DNA of 64,000 bases from Dehalococcoidia bacterium (GCA_965197965.1 OZ240235.1:90621-154620), one strand, 5' to 3'. Shown: positions 6,469-55,082, counted from the first letter of the stretch. Notes: generated from the sequence alone by a model not told the origin. Numbers and translations: made by a program.

Positions 6469-6504
6469 GCAGGGGGCTGGTTCAAGACCCCGCCGCCGCT
6501 CATG

Positions 6505-6563
6505 CCCTTCGACTATGCTCAGGATGAGCGGCCCCCTGGATGCCCGTTGCCACTGGCATGACG
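6505..6563. repeat. REP-like doublet (CCCTTCGACTATGCTCAGG unit plus GGATGC-hairpin-GCATGACG unit)
   Basis: GGATGCCCGTTGCCACTGGCATGACG at 6538-6563. Same architecture as the units elsewhere in the window. Confidence 0.7.
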
Positions 6564-8270: not shown

Positions 8271-8348
8271 GCGCTAGTTGTAGGAGGATTCTAGCAGTGG
8301 CAGGGCAGGCGGGCAAGCGGCGTGGGGGAGGGCAGGTAGGCAAGGTGG

Positions 8349-8396
8349 GCATACAGGCATACAGGCATACAGGCATACAGGCATACAGGCATAAGG
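8349..8396. repeat. tandem octamer GCATACAG x5 plus one degenerate copy
   Basis: Perfect copies at 8349, 8357, 8365, 8373 and 8381, then GCATAAGG at 8389. Lies in the divergent intergenic region between 8270 (-) and 8446 (+). Confidence 0.95.
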
Positions 8397-8860: not shown

Positions 8861-9063
8861 CCTGGATTCCCGTGCCAAGTGCGAGGATGATGGGCACCGC
8901 CCACGCCGTCATTCAGAGGCGTTAACGCCGAAGAATCCAAAGCCTCTGTCCGCAAAGCTACGACGTTTTTGGTGAACGGTCTTGGATCCTTCGTTGCACT
9001 CAGGATGACAATAACCGCGGTCTGTTCCTTGACTCCCGCTCACTCCCTTCGACGTGCTCAGGG
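8861..9063. repeat. REP-like cluster, four units including one in inverted orientation
   Basis: Units at 8861-8892, 8908-8938 (inverted: reverse complement GGATTCTTCGGCGTTAACGCCTCTGAATGAC), 8983-9010, and CCCTTCGACGTGCTCAGGG at 9045-9063. The last overlaps the vapC stop codon. Confidence 0.7.
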
Positions 9064-10559: not shown

Positions 10560-10575
10560 TTTCCGCTGCGCCGCC

Positions 10576-10682
10576 CCTGGGTTCCTGCCTGCGCAGGAAC
10601 GACGAATGGGGGGTGTGCGCTTGACTATGTACGCTTGTCTCTCTGCGACACAGATTCTTCGCTGCGCTCAGAATGACGGTTT
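10576..10682. repeat. REP-like pair (GGGTTCC hairpin unit plus 60-bp long unit)
   Basis: GGGTTCCTGCCTGCGCAGGAACGACG at 10579-10604 (8-bp perfect stem). Long unit at 10623-10682 ends in AGATTCTTCGCTGCGCTCAGAATGACG. Confidence 0.75.
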
Positions 10683-12287: not shown

Positions 12288-12391
12288 TCCCTTCGACTAT
12301 GCTCAGGGTAAACTTCAGGCTCAGGGCGAGCGTGCAGGCGGGGCAGAGGCTTTGGATTCTTCACTCCGCGGAGCTTCGTTCAGAATGACGG
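12288..12391. repeat. REP-like pair
   Basis: CCCTTCGACTATGCTCAGGG unit, then TTGGATTCTTCACTCCGCGGAGCTTCGTTCAGAATGACGG at 12352-12391. Confidence 0.7.
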
Positions 12392-12466
12392 TCGGGGCAG
12401 GCGCGCGGGTAGCACAGGGCGGTTCGCTAACCGCCCCTACGGGGAAGGCTGACCGAAGTGAACCGG

Positions 12467-22189: not shown

Positions 22190-22261
22190 CGTGTCACGTG
22201 GGTGGGGACGGGCAAATTAGGCAAACGGGCAGGCGGGCAAGGCGGGCCGGGTGGTCCGGAC

Positions 22262-24418: not shown

Positions 24419-25529
24419 TGTTGAAAGGATGATTAGGGTCAGAAAGATATCGGACACCAGCGAGAGAGATGAAAGGGAGATATGCTGGTGTCAAGATGAG
24501 TGTATATGGGGCCATACTGCCGGGAGCGGCGAGATTGGCACGGCTCCCGGCGGAGCCCTCAGCGGAAGCCAAGCGCCGATGGAAAGTAGTGCGATGGTAT
24601 GAGGACCACGCAGGGAAGGTGCGGTTGACAGCTCGTCACTTTGGTTACAGTCCTGACACCATAAGCCGGTGGGTACGCGCCTACAACTCTGGTGGAGTGA
24701 GAGGGCTGGAGCCTGGGAGTAGGAGACCCCGGAGGGTGAGACAGCCCCAGACGTCACTGGAGGTGGTAGAGAGGGTTCAGGCCGTGAGGGAGCAGTACCC
24801 CCGATGGGGACGGGAGAAGCTGCGGGTACTATTATTGGAGGAGGGTATCACCCTCTCGGCCAAGAGCATAGACCGGGTGATAGGTCGTCTCAAGGCGCGT
24901 GGGGTACTCCGGGAGGCAGTACAGCCCCGCAAGGCCGTCAGGTGGCGCCAGGCGAGGCTGCGACGACCCAGGGAGTTAGTAGTGGACAGTCCCGGAGCGT
25001 TGGTGCAAATGGACAGCAAGCAGGTGGCCTTAGGGAATGGAAAGGTGGTGTACCAGTTCGGGGCTGTGGACTGCTTCACCCGCAAGAGAGTGGTGGCCTT
25101 GGCGCCACGGCTTACCAGTCATCATGGCGGGGAGTTCTTGAAGCAGGTGGTGACCCAGTTCCCCTTCCAAGTCCAGGCCATACAGTCGGACGGAGGAAGC
25201 GAGTTCCTGAAGGAGTTTGGAGCCAGGGTAGCAGAACTCCAGCTGACCCACTACTTCAACCGACCTAACTACCCTCAGGGAAACGGGCGCATTGAGCGGA
25301 GCTTCCGCACCGACGAGGAGGAGTTCTACCAGGTGGAGGACCTCCCCACCGATCTGGGGAGTCTGGAGCAGGCTCTCCTGGCCTGGAACCGCATCTACGA
25401 GACGGTGCGCCCCCATCAAGCCCTGGGTTACAAGACCCCGGACCAGTTCTATCACCACTGGCTCGATACTAATACCAAGGGAAAGGAGGCCTTGTCCGAT
25501 ATCTCCTGACCCCATACAAGGTATTGACA
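24419..25529 (+). mobile_element. IS481-family insertion sequence (~1.1 kb)
   Basis: Single HTH + rve (DDE) transposase. Imperfect terminal inverted repeats: left TGTTGAAAGGATGATTAGGGTCAGAAAGATATCGGACA; reverse complement of right TGTCAATACCTTGTATGGGGTCAGGAGATATCGGACA. TGT...ACA ends. No target-site duplication seen. Confidence 0.75.
24469..25509 (+). CDS. IS481-family transposase (integrase core domain)
   Basis: N-terminal HTH (ARHFGYSPDTISRWV). DDE residues in LVQMDSK, IQSDGGSEF and PQGNGRIERSF. Stop codon lies inside the right inverted repeat. Confidence 0.85.
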   Translation: MKGRYAGVKMSVYGAILPGAARLARLPAEPSAEAKRRWKVVRWYEDHAGKVRLTARHFGYSPDTISRWVRAYNSGGVRGLEPGSRRPRRVRQPQTSLEVVERVQAVREQYPRWGREKLRVLLLEEGITLSAKSIDRVIGRLKARGVLREAVQPRKAVRWRQARLRRPRELVVDSPGALVQMDSKQVALGNGKVVYQFGAVDCFTRKRVVALAPRLTSHHGGEFLKQVVTQFPFQVQAIQSDGGSEFLKEFGARVAELQLTHYFNRPNYPQGNGRIERSFRTDEEEFYQVEDLPTDLGSLEQALLAWNRIYETVRPHQALGYKTPDQFYHHWLDTNTKGKEALSDIS

Positions 25530-25700
25530 GCTTCTCGTACAGGATGATATAGTTGGGATGTCCTGAGCAATCAAGGCAACGGAGGGGACGGGGTGGAGGC
25601 CAATCGGGCAACCGAGCGGTCGAAAGCCTGGCCAAGCCGGAACTGAGATTTCTCAGGACATTTTCTTTTCACCGCTTGATTTAGACCCCTCACTACGCCG

Positions 25701-25984
25701 CAGGATTGCTTTGCGGAGTTCGCAATGACGGGAAGGACACGCGGGCATGACGAGGAGGGCGTGCTGAAATACGGGGCGGGGGTTTGCGGGCGGGCGGCCT
25801 GGGATTCTTCACTCCGCTGTGCTCCGTTCAGAATGACACTGTCGCGCCGCCGGATTGCTTTGCTGCGCTCGCAATGACGGAAGGGGGCGCCCTCACCCGC
25901 CGCTTTGCGCCGACCTCTCCCAGAGGGAGAGGTGTAGAGCCGTCCCCCGGCCGCCGGATTGCTTCGCTGCGCTCGCAATGACGA
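25701..25984. repeat. densest REP-like cluster (four GGATT-type units plus a CCTCTCCC/GGGAGAGG hairpin)
   Basis: Units at 25701-25732, 25799-25839, 25852-25879 (GGATTGCTTTGCTGCGCTCGCAATGACG) and 25953-25984. Irregular spacing. Confidence 0.75.
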
Positions 25985-25995
25985 GAAGGGCGGGG

Positions 25996-27717
25996 CTACA
26001 TCCCCAACCAAGCGCCCCATTGGCTCTGAAGCCGGTCGGGGTCTAGGGCGTCGTCCATGATTACGTCTACCACGGTTGGCCTGTTGCTGTTCACCGCACT
26101 GAGGAGGGCGGGCCCCAGGTCGTTGGGGTTCTCCACGCGGGTGCCTTCTATATTGAAAGCGGCAGCCATCTTCACGAAATCAAGGGGCAGCTTGTAAAAG
26201 TCCATGCCGAGGTAGTCGCTCTGGCGCTCGGAGCCGGTGAGGTACCGGGTCATACCCTCCCTGAGCACCTTGTAGCTACTGTTGTTGCAGAATACGTAGG
26301 TCACCGGGATGTCGTAAGCGGCCGCTGTCCACAGAGCCTGGATGGTGTACATGGCCGTGCCATCGCCAATTACGGCCACCACTGGCCTATCCGGAGAGGC
26401 CAGCTTCATGCCCAGCGCCGCGCCCATGGCGGAACCCAGGCTTCCGCCTCGTTGTGCGAACAGGGAGCCGGGCTCGTCGAAGTCTATGGCGTTCATGAGG
26501 ACGCCGCGGGTTGTGATGGAGTCGTCGCAGTAGATGAAGCTGGGAGGCAATGCTCGGGCCACCTCGACGGCAAACCGCTCCGAGGAGATGGGTACGTTGT
26601 CCCATTTTTCGTTGACCCTGGCTTGAAACGCCTGGGCAGCGGTGTGCTTCTGGGCGGCGATAGCCTTGCCCCTAGCCCTGGCCTCTTCCTTTGCGGGGCC
26701 TGACATGGTGTTGTCCAAGGCGTCCGCTATCTCCTCCAAACCGGCACTTATATCGCTGAGCACTCCCACCGCCACCGGATACGATCGCTGAATGGCCCAG
26801 GCGCTGCTATCCAGATGGACCAGCTTGGGTGAGCCGCTGAACGGCCTCTCAGGGGTAGGGATGAACTGGATCAGCGCGTCGATGCCGATGGCTACCACGG
26901 CGTCGGACTCGTCCAGTCGCTTCTTCATGCGATGGTCGAACCAGCTTGTTTCGAATGTGCCCAGATAGTGTGGGTGAGAGGTGGGGACGTGCACCTCTGA
27001 CAGGGTTGTGGGGGCGTACACGGGCGCTCCTATCTGCTCGGCGAGCCTGGCAACCAGAAGGGGCGCCCCCGGCGATTGCGATACCCTGTCCCCGACGAGG
27101 ATAAGGGGATCGCTGGCTTGTGCGAGCATGTTTGCCGCTTCCTCTACGGCTCTAGTGTCGGGCCGCAACCGGAAATAGCCGCCTACCGACGGCTCTATAT
27201 CGACGTCGGCCTCTCCGTTCATGGCGTCCCAGGCCAGTGATACGAATACGGGGCCCGTGGGTGGGGTGCTTGCTATCTTGAAGGCTCTTCTGATGATGGA
27301 GGGCACGTCCCAGGGGTGAGTGACCTCTCCCGCCCATTTTGTATACTCTCGCATCACGTTGACCATGTTGGAGTGAAGGGTAGGGGAATGCAGATGAAAG
27401 CTGGAATCGGCCTGTCCGGCGGTGATCACCATGGGAGTGCCGCCCCGCCATGCGTTGTAGACCACCGCGATGGCGTTAGCCACTCCGACCGAGATGTGCA
27501 GGTTGACGAAAGAGGGTTTCTGGGTCACTCTGGCGTATCCGTCCGCCATGCCTGCGGCTACGCCTTCAAACAGTGTGGTGACGTATTGCAGGTCTGGAGC
27601 GTCCTGGAGTGCGTCCATGAGAGGCAACTCCGTGGTGCCGGGATTACCGAAGATGTACTTCACGCCCTCGGCGCGCAGCATTTCAACCAAGGCGCGTTTT
27701 CCCGTCATGCGGGTCAT
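25996..27717 (-). CDS. thiamine-diphosphate-dependent enzyme (benzoylformate decarboxylase/acetolactate synthase-like)
   Basis: YIFGNPGTTELPLMDAL N-terminal Pyr domain. GDGTAMYTIQALWTAA...NN ThDP-binding motif. Confidence 0.8.
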   Translation of the reverse strand: MTRMTGKRALVEMLRAEGVKYIFGNPGTTELPLMDALQDAPDLQYVTTLFEGVAAGMADGYARVTQKPSFVNLHISVGVANAIAVVYNAWRGGTPMVITAGQADSSFHLHSPTLHSNMVNVMREYTKWAGEVTHPWDVPSIIRRAFKIASTPPTGPVFVSLAWDAMNGEADVDIEPSVGGYFRLRPDTRAVEEAANMLAQASDPLILVGDRVSQSPGAPLLVARLAEQIGAPVYAPTTLSEVHVPTSHPHYLGTFETSWFDHRMKKRLDESDAVVAIGIDALIQFIPTPERPFSGSPKLVHLDSSAWAIQRSYPVAVGVLSDISAGLEEIADALDNTMSGPAKEEARARGKAIAAQKHTAAQAFQARVNEKWDNVPISSERFAVEVARALPPSFIYCDDSITTRGVLMNAIDFDEPGSLFAQRGGSLGSAMGAALGMKLASPDRPVVAVIGDGTAMYTIQALWTAAAYDIPVTYVFCNNSSYKVLREGMTRYLTGSERQSDYLGMDFYKLPLDFVKMAAAFNIEGTRVENPNDLGPALLSAVNSNRPTVVDVIMDDALDPDRLQSQWGAWLGM

Positions 27718-27728
27718 GGTCTCCTCCC

Positions 27729-28808
27729 TTACTGGCTTGGGTCGAAAGGCACGGAGTACTCCTTGCTCAGCTCAAGCAGCTCCTGGAACACCTCTGTGCT
27801 GAGAGGGACGCCTTCCCGTTCACGTTGCTCCTTCAGCCGGAACTCCGGTTCCCCGGCAACGTAGATGCGTTCCACACCGGGCGCCCGTTCGGACGATCTA
27901 ATCTGGTCGACAAGTCTGGCCATTCTGTCGTGGAACTCCGTCAGTGGCATGAAACGCTGGATATCGACGGCGATGTAGGCGCCGTTGGCGATGATGGGGT
28001 CTTGTCCAAAGACCTTGAGCTGCGGCACGTCCCTGGCAAAGAGGCCGCCCGAGAGTACGCCACCCAGGATCTCTATCGCGGTGGCGATTCCGAAGCCCTT
28101 GTATCCTCCCGCCCACTGCAGCACTCCATGCTCCAGCACTTCGTTGGGGTCGCTGGTGGGTTCTCCGTGGCGGTCCAGTCCCCAGTCCAAGGGTATGGGC
28201 GTTCCTTTCTTGGCGGCGAGCCTTAATTTACCGGCCGCCACCATGGTCGTTGCCATGTCCAGGACGACCGGATCGCTTTCTGTGGGGATGGCTATGCTGA
28301 ACGGATTGGTGCCGTGGGTGGGGGTGAGGCCGCCAAACGGCGGCACAATGCCCGCTCCGTTGTTCATGGCGATGCCTATCATGTCTTGGGAAGCCGCCGA
28401 CATGGTGTAGAAGCCGATCATGCCGGTGTGGCTAAGGTTGCGCGCCGTTACTATGGACACCCCGAACTGCCGCGCCTTTTGAATCGCGATGGCCATACCC
28501 TGTCTTGCTCCCAACATGCCAAAGCCGTGATCGCCGTCCAGCGCAGCGGTTGCGCCGGAGTCCTGGACGACACGGACCGCGGGACGCGGGTTGAGCACGC
28601 CTTTGTGAATCATGCTGACGTACCCGGAGAGACGCGTGACTCCGTGAGAATCTACACCGCGAAGGTCTGCCTCTACCAGAACCTCCGCCACGAAAGCAGC
28701 GTCCTCTTGGGGCACGCCCTGCTTATGGAGTATCGCCGCCGCAAAGGGACGCAGCTTCTGAGAAGAAACGTGGTTGACTTCCATAGGTGCTCCGCTTGAT
28801 TCCGTCAT
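27729..28808 (-). CDS. Ldh2-family (malate/L-lactate/ureidoglycolate-type) dehydrogenase
   Basis: VEADLRGVDSHGVTRL and NPFSIAIP motifs of PF02615. Confidence 0.8.
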   Translation of the reverse strand: MTESSGAPMEVNHVSSQKLRPFAAAILHKQGVPQEDAAFVAEVLVEADLRGVDSHGVTRLSGYVSMIHKGVLNPRPAVRVVQDSGATAALDGDHGFGMLGARQGMAIAIQKARQFGVSIVTARNLSHTGMIGFYTMSAASQDMIGIAMNNGAGIVPPFGGLTPTHGTNPFSIAIPTESDPVVLDMATTMVAAGKLRLAAKKGTPIPLDWGLDRHGEPTSDPNEVLEHGVLQWAGGYKGFGIATAIEILGGVLSGGLFARDVPQLKVFGQDPIIANGAYIAVDIQRFMPLTEFHDRMARLVDQIRSSERAPGVERIYVAGEPEFRLKEQREREGVPLSTEVFQELLELSKEYSVPFDPSQ

Positions 28809-28821
28809 TGCGCGCGGTTTG

Positions 28822-29868
28822 TTAAAGTCCTGCTATCGAGAGGACTCGCTCGACGTTTTCCGGCGCCGGTTGCAACTGCCCGGCCTCTATCTGTTTGATA
28901 ACTTGAACCGTAGCCGCATTTACCGGGGTGGAAACGCCGGCCTCACGGCTTTTGGACACAATGTACCCGTTCATCTGCTCTATTTCAGTCTTTCTGCCCT
29001 TGATGACATCCTGCGCCATGGAGGAACGCCATTCCGGCCCGCTGGCCCGGGAAGCCATCCAGGCGTCCAGCTCTTCGTAGATATCGCCCTGGTCTGCGTT
29101 TGCCCACATCTCCGGTTCAAACCCGTGCACCTTCTCTATGCTGTAGTCTAGAGCAAGGCCAACCTGCACACACTCCTTGGCAAGCTGGGCATAGACTAGG
29201 CGGGCGCGGCTGTCCCTGGCAAGCCCTTGCGAGCCGAGGCCGGTCAGAGCCTGGAGCGGGTTGGTGGCGATGTTCAGCGCCAGCTTGGACCAGCGTTCCC
29301 CCCATATGTTAGGCGTTGCAAATGAGCCGTCCACGCTTCCCATTATCTCGGCCAGCTTTTCCGCGCGTGGCGTAACATGGCCGTTAAGCTCGCCGACCCG
29401 GAAGGAGTAGCGCTCCTTGTCCGCGGGCTCTTTCCTGCGTTGAACGTGCCCAGGCTCCCAGAGCTGCACGGCATAGTCGCAGAGCACGCACGGTATCACC
29501 CTCTGATATCCCACTATGGAGCCAATAAGCTGATCGTTCATGCAGTTCTGCGCCGATACTACGTAACCGTTGGGGGTGAGTAATCTCTTGACAAAGTGAG
29601 CGCCCCATTCGGTGTCGTACGACTTGAGGGAGAGGATGACGATGTCAAATGGGTCATGTATCCCCTGGACATCCGTCAGATGCAGGGCGTTTACGGGAAC
29701 GGTGAAATCGTCAGGGAAGCCGGAGACTCTGAGGCCGTGCTCTCTCATACGGTCGACGTGGTCACCCCAGATGTCTATGAGGGTGGGATTGTATCCAGCC
29801 CTGGTTAGATGTCCGCCGATGTAGCTGCCCACCGCGCCGGCGCCGACTATTGCGATGCGTTGTCCCAT
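28822..29868 (-). CDS. ketopantoate reductase (PanE/ApbA) family oxidoreductase
   Basis: RIAIVGAGAVGSYIGGHL N-terminus and C-terminal ApbA-like domain. AGGAGGG RBS. Confidence 0.75.
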   Translation of the reverse strand: MGQRIAIVGAGAVGSYIGGHLTRAGYNPTLIDIWGDHVDRMREHGLRVSGFPDDFTVPVNALHLTDVQGIHDPFDIVILSLKSYDTEWGAHFVKRLLTPNGYVVSAQNCMNDQLIGSIVGYQRVIPCVLCDYAVQLWEPGHVQRRKEPADKERYSFRVGELNGHVTPRAEKLAEIMGSVDGSFATPNIWGERWSKLALNIATNPLQALTGLGSQGLARDSRARLVYAQLAKECVQVGLALDYSIEKVHGFEPEMWANADQGDIYEELDAWMASRASGPEWRSSMAQDVIKGRKTEIEQMNGYIVSKSREAGVSTPVNAATVQVIKQIEAGQLQPAPENVERVLSIAGL

Positions 29869-29957
29869 TAGGCCCTCCTGAATGCGAGCACATGGTATGC
29901 AGGTATGAGGGAGCGGTCAAGCTGGGCAAGCGGGCAGGGGGACAGCCGCGCCGCCAC

Positions 29958-30122
29958 TAGATTGCTTCGCTGGGTTCACAATGACGCTGCGCCCCGCCGC
30001 CCTGGGTTCCTGCCTCCGCAGGAACGACGAATGGGGCCCCAGGGCAACCACGAGGGTTGCCCCTACAATGTTTCTGCTCCCGCGCTTGGGTTCCCGCCTT
30101 CGCGGGAGCGACGAATGAGGGG
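29958..30122. repeat. REP-like cluster (three units plus accessory hairpins)
   Basis: TAGATTGCTTCGCTGGGTTCACAATGACGC at 29958-29987. CCTGGGTTCCTGCCTCCGCAGGAACGACGAATGGGG at 30001-30036. CTTGGGTTCCCGCCTTCGCGGGAGCGACGAATGAGGGG at 30085-30122. Confidence 0.75.
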
Positions 30123-30194
30123 TGTGGGTCTGCGTCCGGACGGTGTTGGTCACCCCCATCTCAATCTTTCCCCGTCAAGGGGAAGAGGTTTGGA

Positions 30195-31313
30195 TCACCG
30201 GTCGCGGGCGGTGTGGTGGTAGGTATCCACAACGTCTCCGGATCCGTTCACGGCCAGGGACGAGGGGTACTTGAACGTGGTCATGCAGGCGTGGCCCGGC
30301 GAAGCAAGGAAGAAGTCGCCGATTTCCAGATTCTCGCCGTTTAGCTTGACTACACCGTGCTCCTCGGTTTGGCCCACCAGCTCAGCTTCCGCTTTGCCCA
30401 TGATCTTGAACCGGTTGGACATTGGAGGATCATGGCTTACGCCCTTCTGGCCGATGTCGACAGTGACCGTATCCCATTCCTTCTGGGCGTCTACGACCTG
30501 TCCCAGGATGGCACTCGCTTTCTTGAAGCTGAGTTCGGTCATTACCGAGTTGACCAGATCGAAGTAGATCCAGTTGCCCGGCGATACTCTAATGCCTTCC
30601 TCTTCCGCGTAAAAGCTAAACGACCAAGAGCCTCCGGCTATGACGTCTGGGACATCCAGTCCTTGTCGTGCCGCGTTGCTCTTGATGGCGTATATCTTCT
30701 CGAGGTTTCCTTGCACCACTGCCCGGCGCGGGCCGGGCTCCGCGGTATCTCCGGCGTGTCCGTCGTAGGCGTGTATGCCAGCAGCTGTAAGACCCGGAGA
30801 GCGGGCTATCTGAAGATAGAGTTGGTCCGCCGTTTCGCCGGCTTGAATCCCCGTACCGTGCTCGCTGCCCACCTCCACGTCCATATAGACGGACAGGTCT
30901 TGATTGTGCCGAACGGCGGCATCGGACAGGATTTCGACGTGCTTGGGGTCGCCTGCAATGACGCTGATACTCGCCGTGGGATAACTTTGCTTCAAAGCCA
31001 TGAGACGCTCCAGCTTGGCGGGATGCGGTATGGGAAAGGCGATAACGATTTCCTTGCCCCCGGCACCGGCTACCATTTCCGCTTCGCTCAGTGTGGCGCA
31101 CTTGAAGGCGACCATGCCAGCCTCCAACTGCATGCGCAGGACCTGAGGGGATTTGTGCGTCTTGACGTGCGGCACTATCTTCTGAGGAGAGCCGCACAAT
31201 CGAATTACTTCTGCAATGTTGTATTCGACCATGTCTTGGAATACCAGCATGGCCGGCGTCTCGACGGCTTCGGGATTATTTAGCTTGTATTCGCCTGCTT
31301 CAATTGCGCCCAT
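30195..31313 (-). CDS. D-threonine aldolase / D-serine dehydratase-like PLP enzyme (alanine racemase N-terminal fold)
   Basis: PHVKTHKSP PLP-lysine motif and a C-terminal D-serine-dehydratase-like domain. Confidence 0.7.
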   Translation of the reverse strand: MGAIEAGEYKLNNPEAVETPAMLVFQDMVEYNIAEVIRLCGSPQKIVPHVKTHKSPQVLRMQLEAGMVAFKCATLSEAEMVAGAGGKEIVIAFPIPHPAKLERLMALKQSYPTASISVIAGDPKHVEILSDAAVRHNQDLSVYMDVEVGSEHGTGIQAGETADQLYLQIARSPGLTAAGIHAYDGHAGDTAEPGPRRAVVQGNLEKIYAIKSNAARQGLDVPDVIAGGSWSFSFYAEEEGIRVSPGNWIYFDLVNSVMTELSFKKASAILGQVVDAQKEWDTVTVDIGQKGVSHDPPMSNRFKIMGKAEAELVGQTEEHGVVKLNGENLEIGDFFLASPGHACMTTFKYPSSLAVNGSGDVVDTYHHTARDR

Positions 31314-31322
31314 TTCACTGTG

Positions 31323-31619
31323 TCAAACGTCTTCGCCCTGGATGGCCCGCTCCTTTTCGCCTTCGGCCAGGGCTCTAACCACGCAAATCGTGGCGTTTTG
31401 CTGTTCCTCTAGCTGCTTGAACACGCTCATGGCCTGTTCTTCGGTGCGCCCTTCGTAGGTGAGGTGCAAGTCGGCGTCCCCCTCCGTCCAGTAGATGTGG
31501 AGGAAGCGCCCTCCGCCGCCAACCGTCTCCGCTATGGATCGGGCCGCCCTACCGGCTTCCAGCTGCTGTTCTCCACTGCGGTCGTCGTTGAACTTCAAAA
31601 GGCCTGTATACGTGGACAT
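31323..31619 (-). CDS. GYD domain protein
   Basis: MSTYTGLLKFND...YWTEGDADL...VVRAL follows the GYD-family pattern. Confidence 0.65.
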   Translation of the reverse strand: MSTYTGLLKFNDDRSGEQQLEAGRAARSIAETVGGGGRFLHIYWTEGDADLHLTYEGRTEEQAMSVFKQLEEQQNATICVVRALAEGEKERAIQGEDV

Positions 31620-31653
31620 GATCCCTCCTGGGTTATGTGATGTTTAGCCGTCT

Positions 31654-32808
31654 CTAGGCCAGCGCCTCAATTCTGCGGCAGGCTTCTTCCAAGTCCTCAT
31701 CCGTCTTTGCGTAGCAGAAGCGCATGAGGTTGTCTCCGTCCGAGCCGTGGTAGAAGGCGCTTCCCGCCACCCCTGCCACGCCGGTCTCCCGGAGCAGGTG
31801 CATGGCCTTGTCTCTACCCGTATCCCCCGGAAGCCGGGATACATCCGCCAAAACGTAGTAAGAGCCCTGGGGCGGGTAGGGGGCCAAGCCTGCTTTGGAC
31901 AGAGCGTTGCATATCTTGTCCCGTTTGACCTTGAAGTCAGTGACAATGTTGGAGTAGTACTCGGGCGAAAGCTCTTCCAGGCCTCTTGCCACGCCAAGTT
32001 GAAGCGGCGCTGGAGCGCACACGTAGACCAGGTCGTTCATATACCCGATGATCTGCGCCCACTTTGCATCGCTCACCGCGTATCCAATCCTCCAGCCCGT
32101 GATGCTGAAGACCTTGGAAGCTCCGGATATGGTAATAGTGCGTTCCGCCATGCCCGGCAGTGTAGCCGGACTTATGTGCGTTCTGCCATCGTAGACGAAA
32201 TGTTCGTAAATCTCGTCGGTTATGAGGAACAGGTCATTCTCTTGGACAACCTTGGCTATCCATTCCAGCTCGGTGCGGCTGTACACCTTGCCGGAGGGGT
32301 TGGAAGGGGTGTTGACAATGATGGCTTTGGTCCTGGGCGTGATGGCAGCTTTCAGGCGCTCCGGATCGAACGACCAGTCGGAAGGTGCGGTCGGGACATA
32401 GACGGGGACGGCGTCCATCGAGAGTAGGGTGTTCACGTGGTACTGGTAGTACGGTTCGAAGAGTATTACCTCGTCACCGGGGTCGAGCAGCGCCATGCAA
32501 GCGCTGTAGAATACTCCGGTAGAGCCAGTGCTCACTATGATCTGGCTTTCCGGGTCTACGTCCATGCCGTTGTAGTTGCGCATCTTATTGGCGATGGCGT
32601 ATCTGAGCCGGGGAAGCCCGTCATAGCGAGTGTATATGTTGAACCCATCTTCCACAGCCTGTTGCGCGCCCTGTCTCACGGGCAGGGGGACTTCCATATC
32701 GCAGACGCCTTGAGCAAGGTTGATTCCACCGACCCTGTTGCACTCGATGCTCATAGACCTGATCTCTGATTGGAATACCAATCTTGTTCTGGCGCTCAGT
32801 GAAGGCAT
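31654..32808 (-). CDS. class I/II PLP-dependent aminotransferase
   Basis: INLAQGVCD and SGASKVFSITGWRIGY (PLP lysine) motifs. ATG 32808 has an AAGGAG RBS; the track start 32883 is less likely. Confidence 0.85.
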   Translation of the reverse strand: MPSLSARTRLVFQSEIRSMSIECNRVGGINLAQGVCDMEVPLPVRQGAQQAVEDGFNIYTRYDGLPRLRYAIANKMRNYNGMDVDPESQIIVSTGSTGVFYSACMALLDPGDEVILFEPYYQYHVNTLLSMDAVPVYVPTAPSDWSFDPERLKAAITPRTKAIIVNTPSNPSGKVYSRTELEWIAKVVQENDLFLITDEIYEHFVYDGRTHISPATLPGMAERTITISGASKVFSITGWRIGYAVSDAKWAQIIGYMNDLVYVCAPAPLQLGVARGLEELSPEYYSNIVTDFKVKRDKICNALSKAGLAPYPPQGSYYVLADVSRLPGDTGRDKAMHLLRETGVAGVAGSAFYHGSDGDNLMRFCYAKTDEDLEEACRRIEALA

Positions 32809-32966
32809 ATAGCTCCTTGGACAAGTAACTTGCTGTATGATGTTACGCCTGTTATTGAAATGAAGCAAAGCATTAGGCTTCATCTTAACTGAACAGAGTG
32901 ATGCGGAGTGGCTTGACTGCTTAGAGAAACTAGGCCGTGCACCTTGATTAGGAGGGTTGACTCAAA

Positions 32967-34379
32967 ATGAAGATGTTCATAGGCGGCGAATGGGTAGACA
33001 AGCCTGAGAAGGCGGAAGTAATTAATCCATTCGACAATTCAGTGATAGATTCCGTGCCAAAAGCAGACCTGGAGGACGTGGAGACGGCTATATCCAGCGC
33101 GGTGCGAGGCTCCAAGGTCATGGCAAGAACACCGAGCTATCAGCGCTTTCTCTGGCTGCGAAGAGCTGCAGACCTCCTGGAAGAACGGTCGGAGGAGATG
33201 GCGCGGACCATTTCCATGGAGGAGGGCAAGATCCTGGCCGAGGGCCGGACGGAAGTTGCCCGTGCCGTGCAAACGATCAGCCTCTCCGGAGAAGAAGCGA
33301 AACGCATATACGGCGAGACTATACCTTTGGATGCCAACCCCAGCTGGACGGGCCAGATAGGATTCACCTTGCGCGTCCCGGTTGGCGTGGTGGTGGCCAT
33401 CAGCCCGTTCAATTTCCCTTTGAACCTGGTCGCGCACAAGGTGGCTCCGGCGCTGGCCGCGGGCAACTCCGTAATCATCAAGCCGGCCAGCGATACTCCT
33501 TTATCGGCCTTGAAACTGGTGGAGATTCTGCTCGATGCGGGCGTGCCGGCGGAAGCGGTGCAGTGCTTGACCGGCTCAGGCGGCACCTTGGGAGACGCCC
33601 TGGTAGCCGACCAACGAGTGCGCAAGATATCTTTTACGGGGAGCCGGGACATAGGCGATCACATAGCACGAGTGGCCGGTCTGAAGAAAATTACCATGGA
33701 GCTGGGTTCCATCTGCCCGTTGATTGTGATGCCCGACGCCGATATGACGAAGGTGGTGGCGGCCACAATATCAAGCGGATATGCCAATGCGGGACAGGCA
33801 TGCACTTCAGCACAACGCATAATCACCAGCAGGTCTCTCTACGCGAACTATTTGGACGCCCTGAAGGAAGCGGTAGAGGCCATGAAGGTGGGCGATCAAT
33901 TGGAGGAAGGCGTGGTGATGGGGCCGATGGTGCGCGAACAGGATGCGGCGCGGGTCAACCAGTGGGTCAGAGAGGCTCAAGCCGGAGGAGGCCGCGTCAT
34001 AGCCGGCGGCGACTATTCCAAGGCTGTGCACCAGCCCACGGTTGTGGCAGACGCCAGGCCTGAGATGCGAATCTCGTGTGACGAGCTGTTCGGCCCCGCG
34101 GTGGCGGTGACGCCGTTCACCGATATCGATGAAGCTATTGGCATGGCGAACGATACCAACTACGGGCTAAGCGCTGGGATATTCACCCAGAACGTAGATT
34201 GGGCGATGAAGTTCGCCAAAGAGGTTGAATTTGGGAACCTGATGATCAATCAAGGCCCCGGCTACCGTGCCGATCTGATGCCGTTTGGCGGACTGAAGGA
34301 GAGCGGCCTGGGCAAGGAAGGGCCCAAGTACGCCGTGGAAGAGATGACCGAGGTCAAAATGGTGGCCTATCACCCATAA
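32967..34379 (+). CDS. aldehyde dehydrogenase family protein
   Basis: FPLNLVAHKVAPALAAGN, ELGS (general-base Glu; ELGG in most members) and GQACTSAQR catalytic-Cys region. Confidence 0.9.
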   Translation: MKMFIGGEWVDKPEKAEVINPFDNSVIDSVPKADLEDVETAISSAVRGSKVMARTPSYQRFLWLRRAADLLEERSEEMARTISMEEGKILAEGRTEVARAVQTISLSGEEAKRIYGETIPLDANPSWTGQIGFTLRVPVGVVVAISPFNFPLNLVAHKVAPALAAGNSVIIKPASDTPLSALKLVEILLDAGVPAEAVQCLTGSGGTLGDALVADQRVRKISFTGSRDIGDHIARVAGLKKITMELGSICPLIVMPDADMTKVVAATISSGYANAGQACTSAQRIITSRSLYANYLDALKEAVEAMKVGDQLEEGVVMGPMVREQDAARVNQWVREAQAGGGRVIAGGDYSKAVHQPTVVADARPEMRISCDELFGPAVAVTPFTDIDEAIGMANDTNYGLSAGIFTQNVDWAMKFAKEVEFGNLMINQGPGYRADLMPFGGLKESGLGKEGPKYAVEEMTEVKMVAYHP

Positions 34380-34406
34380 ATAGCGGGTAGCAAACACAGA
34401 CTGGCA

Positions 34407-34503
34407 GCACGCGCTTGGATTCCCGTGTCAAGCACGAGAATGACGAAAGGGAAGGGAGGCGCTAGACGGCTGGCTTGTCAGTATGTCTCCAGCTATCTTG
34501 CGG
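34407..34503. repeat. direct-repeat copy 1: REP unit plus dead 3' end of the hydantoinase gene
   Basis: 97 bp, matching 35228-35325 (98 bp) at roughly 85-90% by hand alignment. The minus strand reads RKIAGDILTSQPSS; the live end reads RKIAGDILTRPAV*. Confidence 0.85.
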
Positions 34504-34520
34504 TAGAGTCGTTGGGATTG

Positions 34521-35231
34521 TCAGGACGGCAGCGCCTGCCGCGCCCTCTTGAAAATGTTGTCCAGCATAGGCTGAGTGAGTCTACCCGTCTGGGTGTTCT
34601 GGCGGCTGGGATGATAAGAGGCAATGAAGGTTAAGTTTGGAGCTAGCTTATATTCGAGTCCGTGACCGAATTTAGGCTTAGGGGAGGGGAGGGGGCGTTT
34701 AAGTGCCTTCCAGGCCTTGAGAAAGCTATCGAAGGCGATTTTGCCCAACGCTATGACCACTTCGACGTTCCTCAGAAGCTCTAGCTCGGCCAAAAGGTAA
34801 GGCTGACATCGCCTCAACTCCTCCGATTGGGGCTTATTGTCTGGCGGAGCACACCTCAAAGCCGCCGTGATGTACATATTCTTCACCACCAAGCCATCGC
34901 CTCTGTGGGTCGATAATGGTTGGTTGGTGAAATCATATTTGTACAGGGAGCGAAACAGCCATTCACCGCTACTATCTCCAGTGAACATACGTCCCGTCCG
35001 ATTGGAGCCATGGGCGCCAGGAGCCAGACCAAGAATCAATATCTTGGCCGATTCATCACCGAAGCCCGGAACAGGCCGGCCCCAGTAATCGCAGTGGCTG
35101 TACATGCGACGCTTCTTCCGGGCGATGGCCTGTCGGTGCTCCACCAATCGGGGACACTGAGCACATGAGATTATTCGTTGGTTCAGTTGCTGAAGGGTGA
35201 CCATTACAGGGTGTAGCTCCGTTGGCGGCAT
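34521..35231 (-). CDS. uracil-DNA glycosylase, family 5 (UdgB)-like
   Basis: GLAPGAHGSNRTGRMFTGDSSG motif and CAQCPRL Fe-S cysteines. Start uncertain: ATG 35231, ATG 35204, or the track's TTG 35252, which lies inside the REP unit. Confidence 0.8.
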   Translation of the reverse strand: MPPTELHPVMVTLQQLNQRIISCAQCPRLVEHRQAIARKKRRMYSHCDYWGRPVPGFGDESAKILILGLAPGAHGSNRTGRMFTGDSSGEWLFRSLYKYDFTNQPLSTHRGDGLVVKNMYITAALRCAPPDNKPQSEELRRCQPYLLAELELLRNVEVVIALGKIAFDSFLKAWKALKRPLPSPKPKFGHGLEYKLAPNLTFIASYHPSRQNTQTGRLTQPMLDNIFKRARQALPS

Positions 35232-35325
35232 GCGCCTGGATTCCCGTGTCAAGCACGAGAATGACGGAAGGGGAGGGGAGCGCTAGACAGCGGGTCTTGT
35301 GAGTATGTCTCCAGCTATCTTGCGG
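35228..35325. repeat. direct-repeat copy 2: REP unit plus live 3' end of the hydantoinase gene
   Basis: GGATTCCCGTGTCAAGCACGAGAATGACG at 35238-35266 is identical to 34417-34445. Confidence 0.85.
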
Positions 35326-36713
35326 GGGATGAGCTTGCCCTCACCGAGCGTTCCCACCAGTTTGCGGTCCTCTATCATTACCTTGCCGCGCAGGGTCACG
35401 GTTACGGGCCAGCCTTCTATCTGCCAGCCCTCCCATGGGTTGTAATCGTAAAGGTGTAGGTCCTCCATTGAGAGCGTCTTCTTGATGTTGGGGTCTATTA
35501 TCGTAATGTCGGCGTCGCTGCCCGTGGCTATGGCGCCCTTTTGGGGGTAGAAGCCAAGTATTTTGGCGGGATTGGTCGACATGATATCGACGTAACGCTC
35601 CAAAGACATTCCTTGCTTCACCACGCCGTCCGAGTATGCTACCCCCATCCGGATTTCTATGCCTATGTTGCCGCCCTGGACGTCCACCACCGTTCTGCCC
35701 CTTGTCTTTCCGGCGTAATCCGTAGCTATGGCGTCAGTGGCCAGGATGCTCAGGTCTCCCACGATTAGGCCGTCCCAGAGCCGCAGCCTGTCCTCCTCCG
35801 ACTTTGTGGCAGGGTAGGTGTGGTATTTCATACCATCGGATTCTTTGTAGTTTTCGGAGTTGAAAGAGGCGTAGAGGAGGATGGTTTCGCCGTATACGGG
35901 GTATCCGCGCCTCCTCGATTCGGCTATGGCGTTCACGCCCTCCTTGGCGCTGGTGTGCACTATGTACATGGCGGAGCCGGTATGCTCGGCGGCGCGTATC
36001 ACCCGGCGTACCGACAGATCCTCCGACAGGTTGGTGCGGATCGTGGGAAGGTAATACCAGTCCCAGGTCTCGTTCTCAGCGGCCCTGGCGTAGTTGTACT
36101 GCACTATTTCGTCGTCTTCCGCATGAATGGCTACGATGCCGCCGTGCTCCGCGGTTTCCCGCATGATATCCACCAGCTGGCCCATGTCTATCATGGTGAC
36201 CGGCCGGTTTGGCCTTGGAGCGTGGTTAGTGGTGAATATCTTGACGCTGGGGAAACCAGCAGCTACGAGGTCCTTTATCTGCGAGATGGTCTGCGGATTG
36301 GCGTTCGGGCCCCGGTAGGTGCAATGAGCCGAGTAGTCTACGTACATCTTGTCTTGGAACATGGCCATGTGGTCTTGGACGGCTCTCACCATGTCTCCGT
36401 GCTTGGCATCGGTAACGCTGGCGAAGTCCATCATGGTGGTTGTGCCGCCCCAGAGCGCGCCCAGGGACAGGTCTTCCGGGCCGGCGGTGTTATTGCCCCA
36501 GCCGGGGGCCAAGTGGGGGAATCCCACGTGGGTATGCGCTTCTACGCCGCCGGGCACAACGATCTTGCCAGTGGCATCGATGGCTTTTTTTGTTTCGGGT
36601 AGGGCATCCGGCGTGGCTACGGCCACAATCTTCTCGCCAATGACGCCTATGTCCCACTGGCCGATGCCGGCCGGAGTCACAACATGTCCGCCTCTTATTG
36701 TTAGGTCAAGCAT
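35283..36713 (-). CDS. D-hydantoinase / dihydropyrimidinase family amidohydrolase
   Basis: GGVEAHTHVGFP metal-binding HxH region, about 476 aa, cyclic amidohydrolase architecture. AGGAGG RBS. Confidence 0.85.
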   Translation of the reverse strand: MLDLTIRGGHVVTPAGIGQWDIGVIGEKIVAVATPDALPETKKAIDATGKIVVPGGVEAHTHVGFPHLAPGWGNNTAGPEDLSLGALWGGTTTMMDFASVTDAKHGDMVRAVQDHMAMFQDKMYVDYSAHCTYRGPNANPQTISQIKDLVAAGFPSVKIFTTNHAPRPNRPVTMIDMGQLVDIMRETAEHGGIVAIHAEDDEIVQYNYARAAENETWDWYYLPTIRTNLSEDLSVRRVIRAAEHTGSAMYIVHTSAKEGVNAIAESRRRGYPVYGETILLYASFNSENYKESDGMKYHTYPATKSEEDRLRLWDGLIVGDLSILATDAIATDYAGKTRGRTVVDVQGGNIGIEIRMGVAYSDGVVKQGMSLERYVDIMSTNPAKILGFYPQKGAIATGSDADITIIDPNIKKTLSMEDLHLYDYNPWEGWQIEGWPVTVTLRGKVMIEDRKLVGTLGEGKLIPRKIAGDILTRPAV

Positions 36714-36718
36714 AGCTA

Positions 36719-36767
36719 CCTCCTGGCCCGTCTTGGCGCGGGCGGCCTTCAGCGAGGTGAGTAGAGG
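36719..36767 (-). pseudogene. relic duplicate of the 3' end of the DUF2277 gene
   Basis: Minus strand reads PLLTSLKAARAKTGQE; the live end reads LLTSLKTIHTKTG*. About 35/49 nt match 36838-36886. Conserved flanks are CCTCCT.GCC.GTCTTGG and TTCAGCGA. Confidence 0.5.
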
Positions 36768-36776
36768 TGCGCTTTG

Positions 36777-36836
36777 GTTATATGTCCGCTTGTCTGCCTG
36801 CGACGCAGATTCTTCGCTGCGCTCAGAATGACGGTT
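36777..36836 (+). repeat. 60-bp long REP unit (one of three near-identical copies)
   Basis: GGTTATATGTCCGCTTGTCTGCCTGCGACGCAGATTCTTCGCTGCGCTCAGAATGACGGT. Other copies at 10623-10682 and 44559-44618, same orientation. Confidence 0.85.
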
Positions 36837-36841
36837 TCCTC

Positions 36842-37057
36842 CTAGCCTGTCTTGGTATGTATGGTCTTCAGCGAAGTAAGCAGGGCCTGGGACGCCAGAC
36901 TTATCTCATCGATCGCTTGATTGAAAGCGGTCTCATTGGCTCGCGAGGGCTTGGCATAGCCGCTGATCTTGCGCACGAATTGCAGCGCGGCGGCGCGCAC
37001 GTCTTCGTCATTGACCGTGGCGTCCGGGCTGCGCAGCTTCTTGATACTTCGGCACAT
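36842..37057 (-). CDS. DUF2277 domain protein
   Basis: MCRSIKKLRSPDATVNDEDVRAAALQFVRKISG matches the DUF2277 N-terminal pattern. Confidence 0.7.
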   Translation of the reverse strand: MCRSIKKLRSPDATVNDEDVRAAALQFVRKISGYAKPSRANETAFNQAIDEISLASQALLTSLKTIHTKTG

Positions 37058-44511: not shown

Positions 44512-44680
44512 TTGGATTCCCGCCTGCGCGGGAGTGACGGGTGTGTGGGTGTGGCCTTGGCTATATGTCCGCTTGTCTCCCAGCAACGCAGATTCTTCGC
44601 TGTGCTCAGAATGACAGTGTGGCGCTTCCGGCAAATTGACACCGGGATTATGAAAAGGTCTCCCTGTGCGGGAGTGACGG
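44512..44680. repeat. REP-like cluster between the binding-protein and permease genes
   Basis: TTGGATTCCCGCCTGCGCGGGAGTGACGGG at 44512-44541. Long unit at 44559-44618. GGTCTCCCTGTGCGGGAGTGACGG at 44657-44680. Confidence 0.75.
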
Positions 44681-48585: not shown

Positions 48586-48699
48586 CCTGGATGTCAGTCC
48601 CCGCATCAAGTGTGGGGCAGGTTACACAGGCATGACTAAGGTGTTCTGTCAGCCCACGCTACCACCAGATTGCTCGCTGGCGCTTGCAATGACGATAGG
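48586..48699. repeat. REP-like pair
   Basis: CCTGGATGTCAGTCCCCGCATCAAGTGTGGGGCAG...GCATGACTAAGG at 48586-48641. CCAGATTGCTCGCTGGCGCTTGCAATGACGATAGG at 48665-48699. Confidence 0.65.
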
Positions 48700-49979: not shown

Positions 49980-50119
49980 TGGGGTAGGGCCGTGGTCTGA
50001 GCCTAACCGGCTTGGACGCTTCGTAAGGCGATAGAGGTTTGAATGTAAAAGAGAGGCCACGCCTTAGTCGTTGCCCCGAGGTAATCATGGCTGAGACCGA
50101 TGGGAATTAGAGTGTTCTT

Positions 50120-52162: not shown

Positions 52163-52188
52163 AATCGTATATTAGTTCCCAAAATAAG

Positions 52189-54840: not shown

Positions 54841-55044
54841 GCAGCTACTCCTTTCATGGCATATCTAAACATCTGCTTCTCATATACTGAGGTAGGAAGA
54901 TAGTCGTCTCCCTGTGGATAGTCAAGCGGCGGGCGGACAGACGGTCGTTCACGGCTTGAGATGCTTCGTCGGCGGGAGGTGGTTGAATGCAGGCGTGGTC
55001 TGACCGACTCCTCAGCATGACACTCCACCCCGCCGCCCCTGGAT

Positions 55045-55082
55045 GCCCGCCTGTCCGTATGTTCGTCCTCCTGCAGGCGGGC
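55045..55082. repeat. REP-like hairpin abutting the pfk stop codon
   Basis: CCCCTGGATGCCCGCCTG...CAGGCGGGC. 9-bp perfect stem GCCCGCCTG/CAGGCGGGC with a 20-nt loop. No U tract. Confidence 0.5.

Follow-up and report, generated by a model that had tools for sequence, protein, structure and literature searches.

CGTC-tagged REPs were defined as a superfamily by Di Nocera, De Gregorio and Rocco in 2013 on the basis of an unpaired CGTC tag (with TGTC and CCTC as variants), a stem of 8 to 9 bp that starts with A-T/T-A pairs, a loop of 4 to 5 nt and a CCA tail (PMC3733652). Four families, CGTC-1 to CGTC-4, were distinguished, such that CGTC-1 is the dRS3 repeat of Neisseria and CGTC-1 and CGTC-4 are RPE-6 and RPE-4 of Rickettsia (PMC3733652). 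These repeats were reported without a dedicated transposase, the lack of a flanking RAYT gene being the norm, and they occur predominantly as head-to-head dimers, with head-to-tail arrangements negligible and clusters rare save in Neisseria and Wolbachia; the dimer organization is species dependent and does not form part of the sequence definition (PMC3733652). The clusters described by Di Nocera et al. reiterate units together with flanking DNA. Five phyla were listed in 2013, and Chloroflexota was not among them (PMC3733652). A replication-linked orientation bias is known from the IS200/IS605 elements, where it has been explained by use of the lagging-strand template.

Here we describe a family of hairpin repeats in a 64-kb stretch of Dehalococcoidia (Chloroflexota) DNA (58% G+C), referred to below as the window, the proteins of which have matches in Chloroflexota/Dehalococcoidia metagenome-assembled genomes. 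The work follows up an earlier note on this DNA that drew attention to a cluster at 25701-25984, the flagged cluster.

The window carries a family of hairpin repeats in 12 intergenic clusters

Read on the plus strand, the repeat unit has the form GG-[AT..stem-loop..AT]-GACG, and 21 to 25 units lie in 12 intergenic clusters at 6.5, 8.9, 10.6, 12.3, 25.7, 30.0, 34.4, 35.25, 36.8, 44.5, 48.6 and 55.0 kb (Table 1). Twenty-one of these units are clear and three or four are degenerate (25741-25752, 44657-44679, 48589-48637 and 55041-55082), against at least two dozen units in 12 intergenic clusters in the earlier note; the example units quoted there were all found, to within 1 nt, and the single inverted copy is the minus-strand unit at 8907-8938. 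The pattern GGATTS-N8-24-SAATGACG matched the window seven times against 0.08 matches expected.

A loose scan for a hairpin plus GACG returned 292 matches in the window and was uninformative. A stricter hairpin descriptor gave 21 matches against 4.8 in shuffled sequence, missed the B-type units and included six chance matches, so a covariance model was used instead. Its seed was made up of 13 units; a full MAFFT alignment placed the C2-type and inverted units one column off. The model found its 13 seed units again and recovered two non-seed units, at 12342-12400 (E 0.0014) and on the minus strand at 8897-8950 (E 0.04), together with four further borderline matches, and its search of the window yielded no credible match inside coding sequence. 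The check proposed at the outset, a covariance model, delivered both additional units and compensatory changes in the stem. The census, the positions of the units and their covarying stems bear out a hairpin family at gene 3' ends, and the repeat observation is real and was correctly read as REP-like.

Four canonical units, one remnant and one unrelated palindrome (25915-25931) make up the flagged cluster. Elsewhere, a 65-nt repeat that ends in a C-type unit is present in three copies, two of which follow an A-type unit.

Table 1. Repeat units, clusters and neighboring features of the window
Position	Strand	Feature	Remarks
6498-6563	+	Companion hairpin GCTCATGCCCTTCGACTATGCTCAGGATGAGC, then unit GGATGCCCGTTGCCACTGGCATGACG (6538-6563)
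8864-9062		Mixed cluster: degenerate B-type 8864-8892 (+), inverted unit 8907-8938 (-), unit 8984-9010 (+), companion motif 9045-9062 (+)
10575-10680	+	Composite: A-type 10579-10604, GGTGTG spacer, 65-nt repeat	C2-type 10652-10678 at end of the 65-nt repeat
12288-12390	+	Companion motif 12288-12306 and D-type unit 12354-12390	E 0.0014, non-seed
24469-25509	+	IS481-like transposase gene (HTH + rve)	Between AAATACCTGTTGAAAGG and TATTGACAGC
25524-25672	+	Candidate small RNA	Directly left of flagged cluster
25703-25730	+	C1-type unit GGATTGCTTTGCGGAGTTCGCAATGACG	Flagged cluster; covariance model 44.7 bits
25741-25752	+	Remnant GCGGGCATGACG	Right half of palindrome CGTCATGCCCG..CGGGCATGACG, intact in relative L001 (alignment)
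25803-25838	+	D-type unit GATTCTTCACTCCGCTGTGCTCCGTTCAGAATGACA	Flagged cluster
25852-25879	+	C1-type unit	Flagged cluster; covariance model 49.1 bits
25956-25983	+	C1-type unit	Flagged cluster; covariance model 49.5 bits
29959-30113	+	Tandem of three: C1 29959-29986, A 30004-30029, A 30088-30113
34402-34503	+	~103-nt copy of 35223-35325	Holds B-type unit 34417-34445; missing from L001
35238-35266	+	B-type unit	16 nt past hydantoinase stop codon; kept in L001
36719-36736, 36837-36854		Imperfect 18-nt direct duplication	Around insertion 36737-36838
36737-36838	+	~102-nt insertion relative to L001	65-nt repeat and C2-type unit 36807-36833
44514-44679	+	Transporter cluster: A-type 44514-44539, C2-type 44590-44616, degenerate 44657-44679
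48589-48694	+	Atypical unit 48589-48637 and C1-type unit 48667-48694	Sole cluster between two plus-strand genes; another repeat here in L207
55041-55082	+	Hairpin GGATGCCCGCCTG..CAGGCGGGC	Family 5' flank, no GACG tag; adjoins phosphofructokinase stop codon; site content differs in L206 and L207
2-1150, 52236-53618, 53662-54840	-	Three paralogous FAS1_DH-region (MaoC-like dehydratase) genes
8348-8387, 2364-2390, 8304-8315, 22220-22246, 29925-29936	+	G-rich octamer arrays: (GGCATACA)x5 and GGCArrCGGGCA motifs
12414-12446, 30040-30070, 30150-30190, 25915-25931		Other hairpin repeat families	In the same clusters

The candidate small RNA beside the flagged cluster has a predicted promoter (TTGACA, an 18-nt spacer and TATAGT; 11 of 12 positions match) with TG before the -10 box. 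It would fold into a rod-like hairpin of ~100 nt (MFE -49.3 kcal/mol, z -3.6) and ends in a terminator-like stem at 25643-25656 followed by a T-run. The sequence is ~94% identical in the relative L001 (45-nt core at L001 20767-20811), where the flanks diverge, and it had no Rfam match.

Hairpin repeats of other families are interspersed with the units. One of these, GGGC..GCCCCTAC, occurs twice in the window and again in the relative L207; a second, CACCCCCATCTCAATCTTTCCCCGTCAAGGGGAAGAGG, is also found in L207, at the 48.6-kb site; and a third, CTCTCCCAGAGGGAGAG, gave a sub-threshold match to Rfam whalefall-1 (20.8 bits against a 37-bit cut-off). That match, to a palindrome neighboring the units, and a chance CRISPR-DR match were all that Rfam returned, and it holds no family for the units themselves.

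Four subfamilies share conserved flanks and a covarying outer stem

From 5' to 3' on the plus strand, a unit consists of a flank, a stem that begins with A-T/T-A, a variable center, the complementary arm, the unpaired GACG and a purine-rich stretch. The conserved flanks, cGCCGCC-(2-4 nt)-TGG on the 5' side and the purine-rich rAAGGGG 3' of GACG, are longer than first described. Units are 26 to 37 nt long and fall into four subfamilies, with the consensus sequences GGrTTCCyGCC-tnc-GCrGGAryGACG (A type), GGATTCCCGTGTCAAGCACGAGAATGACG (B type), rGATTsyTTyGCTGCGCTCrsAATGACG (C type) and GGATTCTTCACTCCGCGGAGCTTCGTTCAGAATGACG (D type). The tag is GACG in 17 of the 21 units, GACA (equivalent to TGTC) in three and GATG in one. 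A G precedes the stem in every unit, and the three preceding bases are TGG in 11 of 21 and CGG, AGG, GGG, TAG or CAG in the others. Of the 18 distinct sequences, 15 open the stem with A-T and three with G-C, and the second pair is T-A in 16 and T-G in two. A- and B-type stems are 8 to 9 bp long and enclose loops of 4 nt (A) or 5 nt (B), while in C- and D-type units the outer stem is only 5 bp long and runs into a 2x2 mismatch, with 11 to 21 nt separating the outer arms.

A companion motif had been described as an element distinct from the units. It is present at all three of the positions given for it (6505, 9045 and 12288), but its consensus was one base too short for two of the three copies, and it is not separate. 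Because the core TTCG-loop-GCTCAG is common to both, the companion motif is a variant of the C-type units with different outer arms.

Two tests support the outer stem. In units anchored at both stem ends, the outer five positions are paired in 95.6% of cases; permutation of the 3' arms gave a mean of 79% and a maximum of 91%, and none of 10,000 permutations reached the observed value. The pair types alternate between A-T and G-C at position 1, among T-A, G-C and C-G at position 3, between C-G and G-C at position 4 and between C-G and T-A at position 5. When 23 units of the window and L001 were aligned to the model, both sides changed in eight of nine pairs, of which only about four to six changes are independent because the subfamilies are copies of one another. 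Covariation in this alignment scored 0.429, compared with 0.217 for shuffles, none of 500 of which reached the observed value, and pairing was lost when the 3' partner was slid by one to three columns. The covarying stems reported in the earlier note are therefore upheld for the outer stem.

The further step taken there, from covarying stems to selection on structure, holds for only part of the family. A- and B-type units form stable hairpins (-8 to -13.5 kcal/mol, z -2.4 to -3.5 against shuffles), whereas C- and D-type units (-2.6 to -5 kcal/mol, z +0.6 to +1.5) fold no better than shuffled sequence. All four canonical units of the flagged cluster are of the weak class, with 5-bp hairpins of a stability at the level of shuffles. 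The C- and D-type units are conserved mainly at the sequence level, with the core TTCGCTGCGCTC. Wobble pairs did not reveal the folding strand, as about five G-T cells fit the plus strand only and about four C-A cells the minus strand only.

Identity and distribution of the repeat

On the other strand, the unit reads as CGTC followed by an AT-initial stem, a loop and a CCA tail. Because this reverse complement fits the published definition, the units are very probably members of the CGTC-tagged REP superfamily. The generic label "REP-like" is refined accordingly to an already named superfamily, described in 2013, the Neisseria and Rickettsia forms of which had been catalogued earlier. The units depart from canonical REP/REPIN elements with a RAYT in having CGTC as the tag and not the GTAG (GT[AG]G) tetranucleotide 5' of the hairpin.

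An exact scan of the genomes of 185,579 species for GGATTCCCG-N4-10-CGGGAATGACG gave matches that, among those listed, come from more than 12 phyla. The matches listed include Bacteroidota; Alpha-, Beta- and Gammaproteobacteria; Desulfobacterota, Planctomycetota, Acidobacteriota, Gemmatimonadota and Nitrospirota; Binatia, Latescibacterota, Zixibacteria, Bdellovibrionota and Campylobacterota; one Peribacteria bin; and at least 11 Chloroflexota genomes (Dehalococcoidia among them). Neisseria lactamica, N. mucosa and N. dentiae are also among them. Since the exact scan matched so many phyla, the CGTC repeat is, judged by its sequence, a cosmopolitan element: the same 20-nt core is found in many more phyla than the original five, including Chloroflexota, where it reaches up to ~1 unit per 3 kb.

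Units lie at gene 3' ends and between operon genes

All intergenic regions of the window were read, and every unit is intergenic. Units are present in four of seven convergent regions, seven of 15 minus/minus regions and one of nine plus/plus regions, and in none of the nine divergent (promoter-side) regions. The tag lies 8 to 16 nt from the upstream stop codon in three cases, and the A-type unit at 44514-44539 sits between the genes for an ABC transporter binding protein and permease. The units do not resemble intrinsic terminators: a terminator scan of 25000-37000 called no unit, no unit has a following T-run, and the flanking sequence reads GACGrAAGGGG on one strand and, on the opposite one, CCAGGGGCGGCG.

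Such placement, strictly 3'-end or intercistronic and never in divergent regions, would suit units that are primarily functional RNA elements (3'-end stabilizers, processing sites or attenuators) under selection, in which case the copy number would reflect repeated recruitment and not mobility. The covarying stems are in keeping with this, as is the retention in L001 of the units at 35238 and 44514, one of them in a classic malE-malF-like arrangement. However, half of the units are unstable hairpins, none is followed by a T-run, and the wobble pairs favor neither strand; furthermore, as described below, most sites differ among genomes that are 87 to 96% identical, and orientation is independent of transcription. 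We therefore regard a primarily functional RNA as an unlikely account of the family.

Mechanically called ORFs of 105 to 149 aa cross the repeat clusters at 25571-26020 (minus strand) and 29905-30222 (plus strand). Repeats of this sort give rise to spurious "hypothetical proteins" and lead to gene starts that are extended too far, as in 34521-35252 and 1204-2439. The G-rich octamer arrays of Table 1 lie in the 5' regions of minus-strand genes; their complements hold TTGCC/TTGAC-like words, and the arrays may be promoter or operator repeats. Two of the FAS1_DH-region genes, 2-1150 and 52236-53618, share 70 to 80% nucleotide identity over more than 1 kb.

The clusters turn over rapidly among close relatives

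Presence/absence polymorphism, a check suggested with the original observation, was followed in four relative loci, L206, L208, L001 and L207, which have 96%, 91%, 90% and ~87% nucleotide identity to the window, respectively, and most sites proved to differ. The units at 35238 and 44514 occupy the same sites in L001. Missing from L001 are the unit-bearing segment 34380-34520 (where two convergent genes overlap instead), the 102-nt segment 36737-36838 and the units at 44590 and 44657, and the content of the flagged cluster is largely different there. The sites at 54.9 and 48.6 kb carry different repeats in L206 and L207. Units are thus gained, lost and replaced fast at the same gene 3' ends.

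The junctions are untidy. Inserted units often bring extra flanking DNA, duplications or unrelated spacer DNA: the imperfect 18-nt duplication around 36737-36838 leaves intact the stop codon upstream and the ribosome-binding site downstream, and the copy at 34402-34503 includes ~40 nt of the 3' end of the hydantoinase coding sequence. Because the relatives differ at most sites and the copies drag flanking DNA with them, the clusters behave as mosaics that evolve fast, in which new copies do not arrive as clean, minimal insertions.

Hydantoinase-linked metagenome loci gave only seven weak matches in 763 kb. As these loci are nearly free of units, the high unit density is specific to the lineage of the window. 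With close relatives that differ at most sites, this lineage is well suited to catching the elements in movement and to finding whatever moves them.

At a larger scale, a 2.2-kb segment (49990-52181, with a 680-aa ORF at 50120-52162) is absent from L206 despite the 96% identity and represents a strain-specific insertion or deletion.

Unit orientation follows the DNA strand

All but one of the 21 units in the window carry GG..GACG on the plus strand. Their neighbor pairs are head-to-tail in eight cases, head-to-head in one and tail-to-tail in one, whereas 27 of 33 neighbor pairs in a sample from other phyla are head-to-head. This near-uniform orientation in same-direction arrays is the unusual feature; the earlier note mentioned the one inverted copy without remarking on it.

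Because plus-strand units occur after minus- and plus-strand genes alike, orientation follows the DNA strand and not transcription. The converse rule, in which orientation follows transcription such that CGTC comes first in the mRNA, fits seven of the eight codirectional clusters of the window and is ruled out by the 48.6-kb cluster, the cluster at L208 4279 and the loci L049 and L104. The first two of these lie between genes on the strand of the unit itself; all other clusters lie between opposite-strand genes or in convergent regions.

The plus strand of the window is G rich independently of coding, with a replication-like component of the third-codon-position skew of +0.11 and an intergenic skew, clusters removed, that is also +0.11. 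Of the 37 copies of the octamer GGGNAGGG (16 expected), 32 are on the plus strand and five on the minus strand; the copies lie mostly inside genes, and the octamer is skewed in the matching sense in the relatives (L001 0:11, L207 13:1, L206 9:2, L208 2:6). This polarity is KOPS-like and marks the plus strand of the window as leading-strand sequence; the octamer is likewise strand-skewed in L001, L206, L207, L208 and L008.

The G-rich, GGGNAGGG-rich (leading-sequence) strand carries GG..GACG in ~90% of units, whatever the direction of the neighboring gene. Units specific to relatives keep the polarity (L208 4279, 19045, 20893 and 21032; L207 4721), as do the L208 units beyond the window and those of the independent genome L008. 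The exceptions are 8907-8938 and L001 4054-4103. Independent Chloroflexota loci with an absolute GC skew of at least 0.03 hold seven unpaired units, and all of these agree with the skew, against 34 of 62 in other phyla, which amounts to no bias. Seen locally, in ~110 kb of one lineage and a few 8-kb loci, the polarity is well supported; for the genome as a whole, we offer it as a hypothesis.

Could the uniform orientation be a by-product of local segmental copying in direct orientation, the units being inert relics with no present mobility and no strand-specific mechanism? Copies do bring flanking DNA with them, including the part of a coding 3' end held in the 103-nt copy at 34402-34503; the 65-nt repeat is present three times and its composite with an A-type unit twice; and, as noted above, the clusters of Di Nocera et al. 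behave similarly. Yet the unrelated subfamilies A, B, C and D have the same polarity at 15 to 16 separate sites over more than 80 kb, and so do the relative-only sites and the independent genome listed above, which makes copying as the whole cause distinctly unlikely.

The agreement of ~90% of units with the GGGNAGGG skew also raises the idea of a polar signal for chromosome architecture or protein binding that resides in the units or in their G-rich 3' flanks and is either kept co-oriented with replication, like KOPS/Chi, or bound by nucleoid- or gyrase-type proteins, like BIMEs. B-type flanks do contain GGGAAGGG or GGGGAGGG (34449, 35270). However, most of the 37 GGGNAGGG sites are in genes and unconnected with units, other phyla have inverted dimers and no polarity, and the fast turnover speaks against a positional function. 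We consider a polar signal very unlikely.

A further reading is that in this lineage CGTC repeats are inserted or retained in a single orientation relative to replication, with GG..hairpin..GACG on the lagging-strand template strand. This is conceivable, if somewhat doubtful. Were it true genome-wide, it would give a first mechanistic handle on a cosmopolitan family and would point to a single-strand, fork-coupled mechanism, active now or recently in this lineage.

A proposed model for the spread of the units

A Pfam scan of the 20 small or unassigned ORFs of the window, the remaining window genes being assigned by synteny or by eye only, found no Y1_Tnp/RAYT domain (PF01797), in line with the earlier statement that the window lacks a RAYT or Y1 transposase. 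Nor was the domain present in the precomputed Pfam annotations of the relative loci L001-L005 and L206-L208; within the 64 kb of the window and ~90 kb from close relatives, the search for a RAYT took in these ORFs and annotations. Two other candidates were rejected: in L047 and L034, which are other Dehalococcoidia loci, inverted units flank genes that proved to encode ordinary metabolic enzymes and not transposases, and a tie between the units and the IS481-like element was discarded, since this element is a separate insertion, absent from L001 and unrelated to the hairpin units.

We propose that the units are non-autonomous and spread by mobilization in trans. The mobilizing enzyme may act on single-stranded DNA at the replication fork, as do HUH/Y1 enzymes (IS200/IS605 or RAYT-like). 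Such an enzyme would explain the strand polarity, and tandem, strand-polarized units, as opposed to paired head-to-head ones, are the asymmetry expected from single-strand, replication-coupled mobilization; by analogy with those systems, this fork-coupled step can be put forward tentatively. Clusters would then grow by local copying, with neighboring DNA dragged along, and the inserted units would be transcribed in 3' UTRs or intercistronic spacers.

The REP between malE and malF of Escherichia coli is a barrier to 3'-to-5' mRNA decay. By analogy, the stable A- and B-type hairpins could block such decay and so protect the upstream mRNA, a role for which the strongest candidate is the conserved intercistronic unit that separates the binding-protein gene of the transporter from the permease gene.

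Several observations weigh against this account. Transposition of the IS200/IS605 type generates no target duplication, whereas the insertions seen here are untidy, with an 18-nt flanking duplication, 40 nt of a gene 3' end copied and unrelated spacer DNA. In addition, no transposase was identified in the ORFs and loci scanned, the published CGTC repeats lack a dedicated one, the C- and D-type hairpins are thermodynamically weak, and units of other phyla show no polarity. On balance, we hold with moderate confidence the explanation as a whole: a CGTC-type REP, mobilization in trans, local copying and a role in 3' UTRs.

Comparison with known systems

With the IS200/IS605 single-strand transposons, the units share an orientation bias linked to replication. 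Those transposons, however, are autonomous, carry their own transposase and insert cleanly without duplication, whereas the window units are 26 to 37 nt long and have untidy junctions.

Like the REP, BIME and REPIN elements of enterobacteria and Pseudomonas, they are short hairpins with a tag, found at the 3' ends of genes and between the genes of operons, in which four unpaired bases adjoin the foot of the stem and which are likely to affect mRNA 3' ends. They differ in having CGTC in place of GTAG as the tag, in lacking inverted doublets and in the absence of any RAYT seen here.

The resemblance to dRS3 and the intergenic mosaic regions of Neisseria extends to sequence, in that the core ATTCCC-N8-GGGAAT is identical to that of A-type units (L001 has ATTCCCGCCTGCGCGGGAAT), and to arrangement, in that units occur in clusters among which other repeat families are interspersed. 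The dRS3 repeats are integration targets for phage and IS elements. No integration into units was seen here, the IS481-like element lying ~170 nt from the nearest unit.

Set against the CGTC superfamily as a whole, the window units have the unpaired CGTC tag with its TGTC variant, the A-T/T-A start of the stem in most sequences and the CCA tail, and the A and B types also have its 8- to 9-bp stems and 4- to 5-nt loops. As in that superfamily, they are intergenic, lie downstream of genes, comprise several subfamilies per genome and, in the ORFs scanned, lack a flanking transposase. Unlike its published members, which are predominantly head-to-head, they are head-to-tail in eight of 10 neighbor pairs; their C and D types have the 5-bp outer stem and widely spaced arms described above; clusters are frequent; the units are polarized on the G-rich strand; and the host phylum is Chloroflexota. 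The repeat itself is ordinary, and what the window adds to the superfamily is a new host lineage, a much wider taxonomic range and a tandem, strand-polarized organization.
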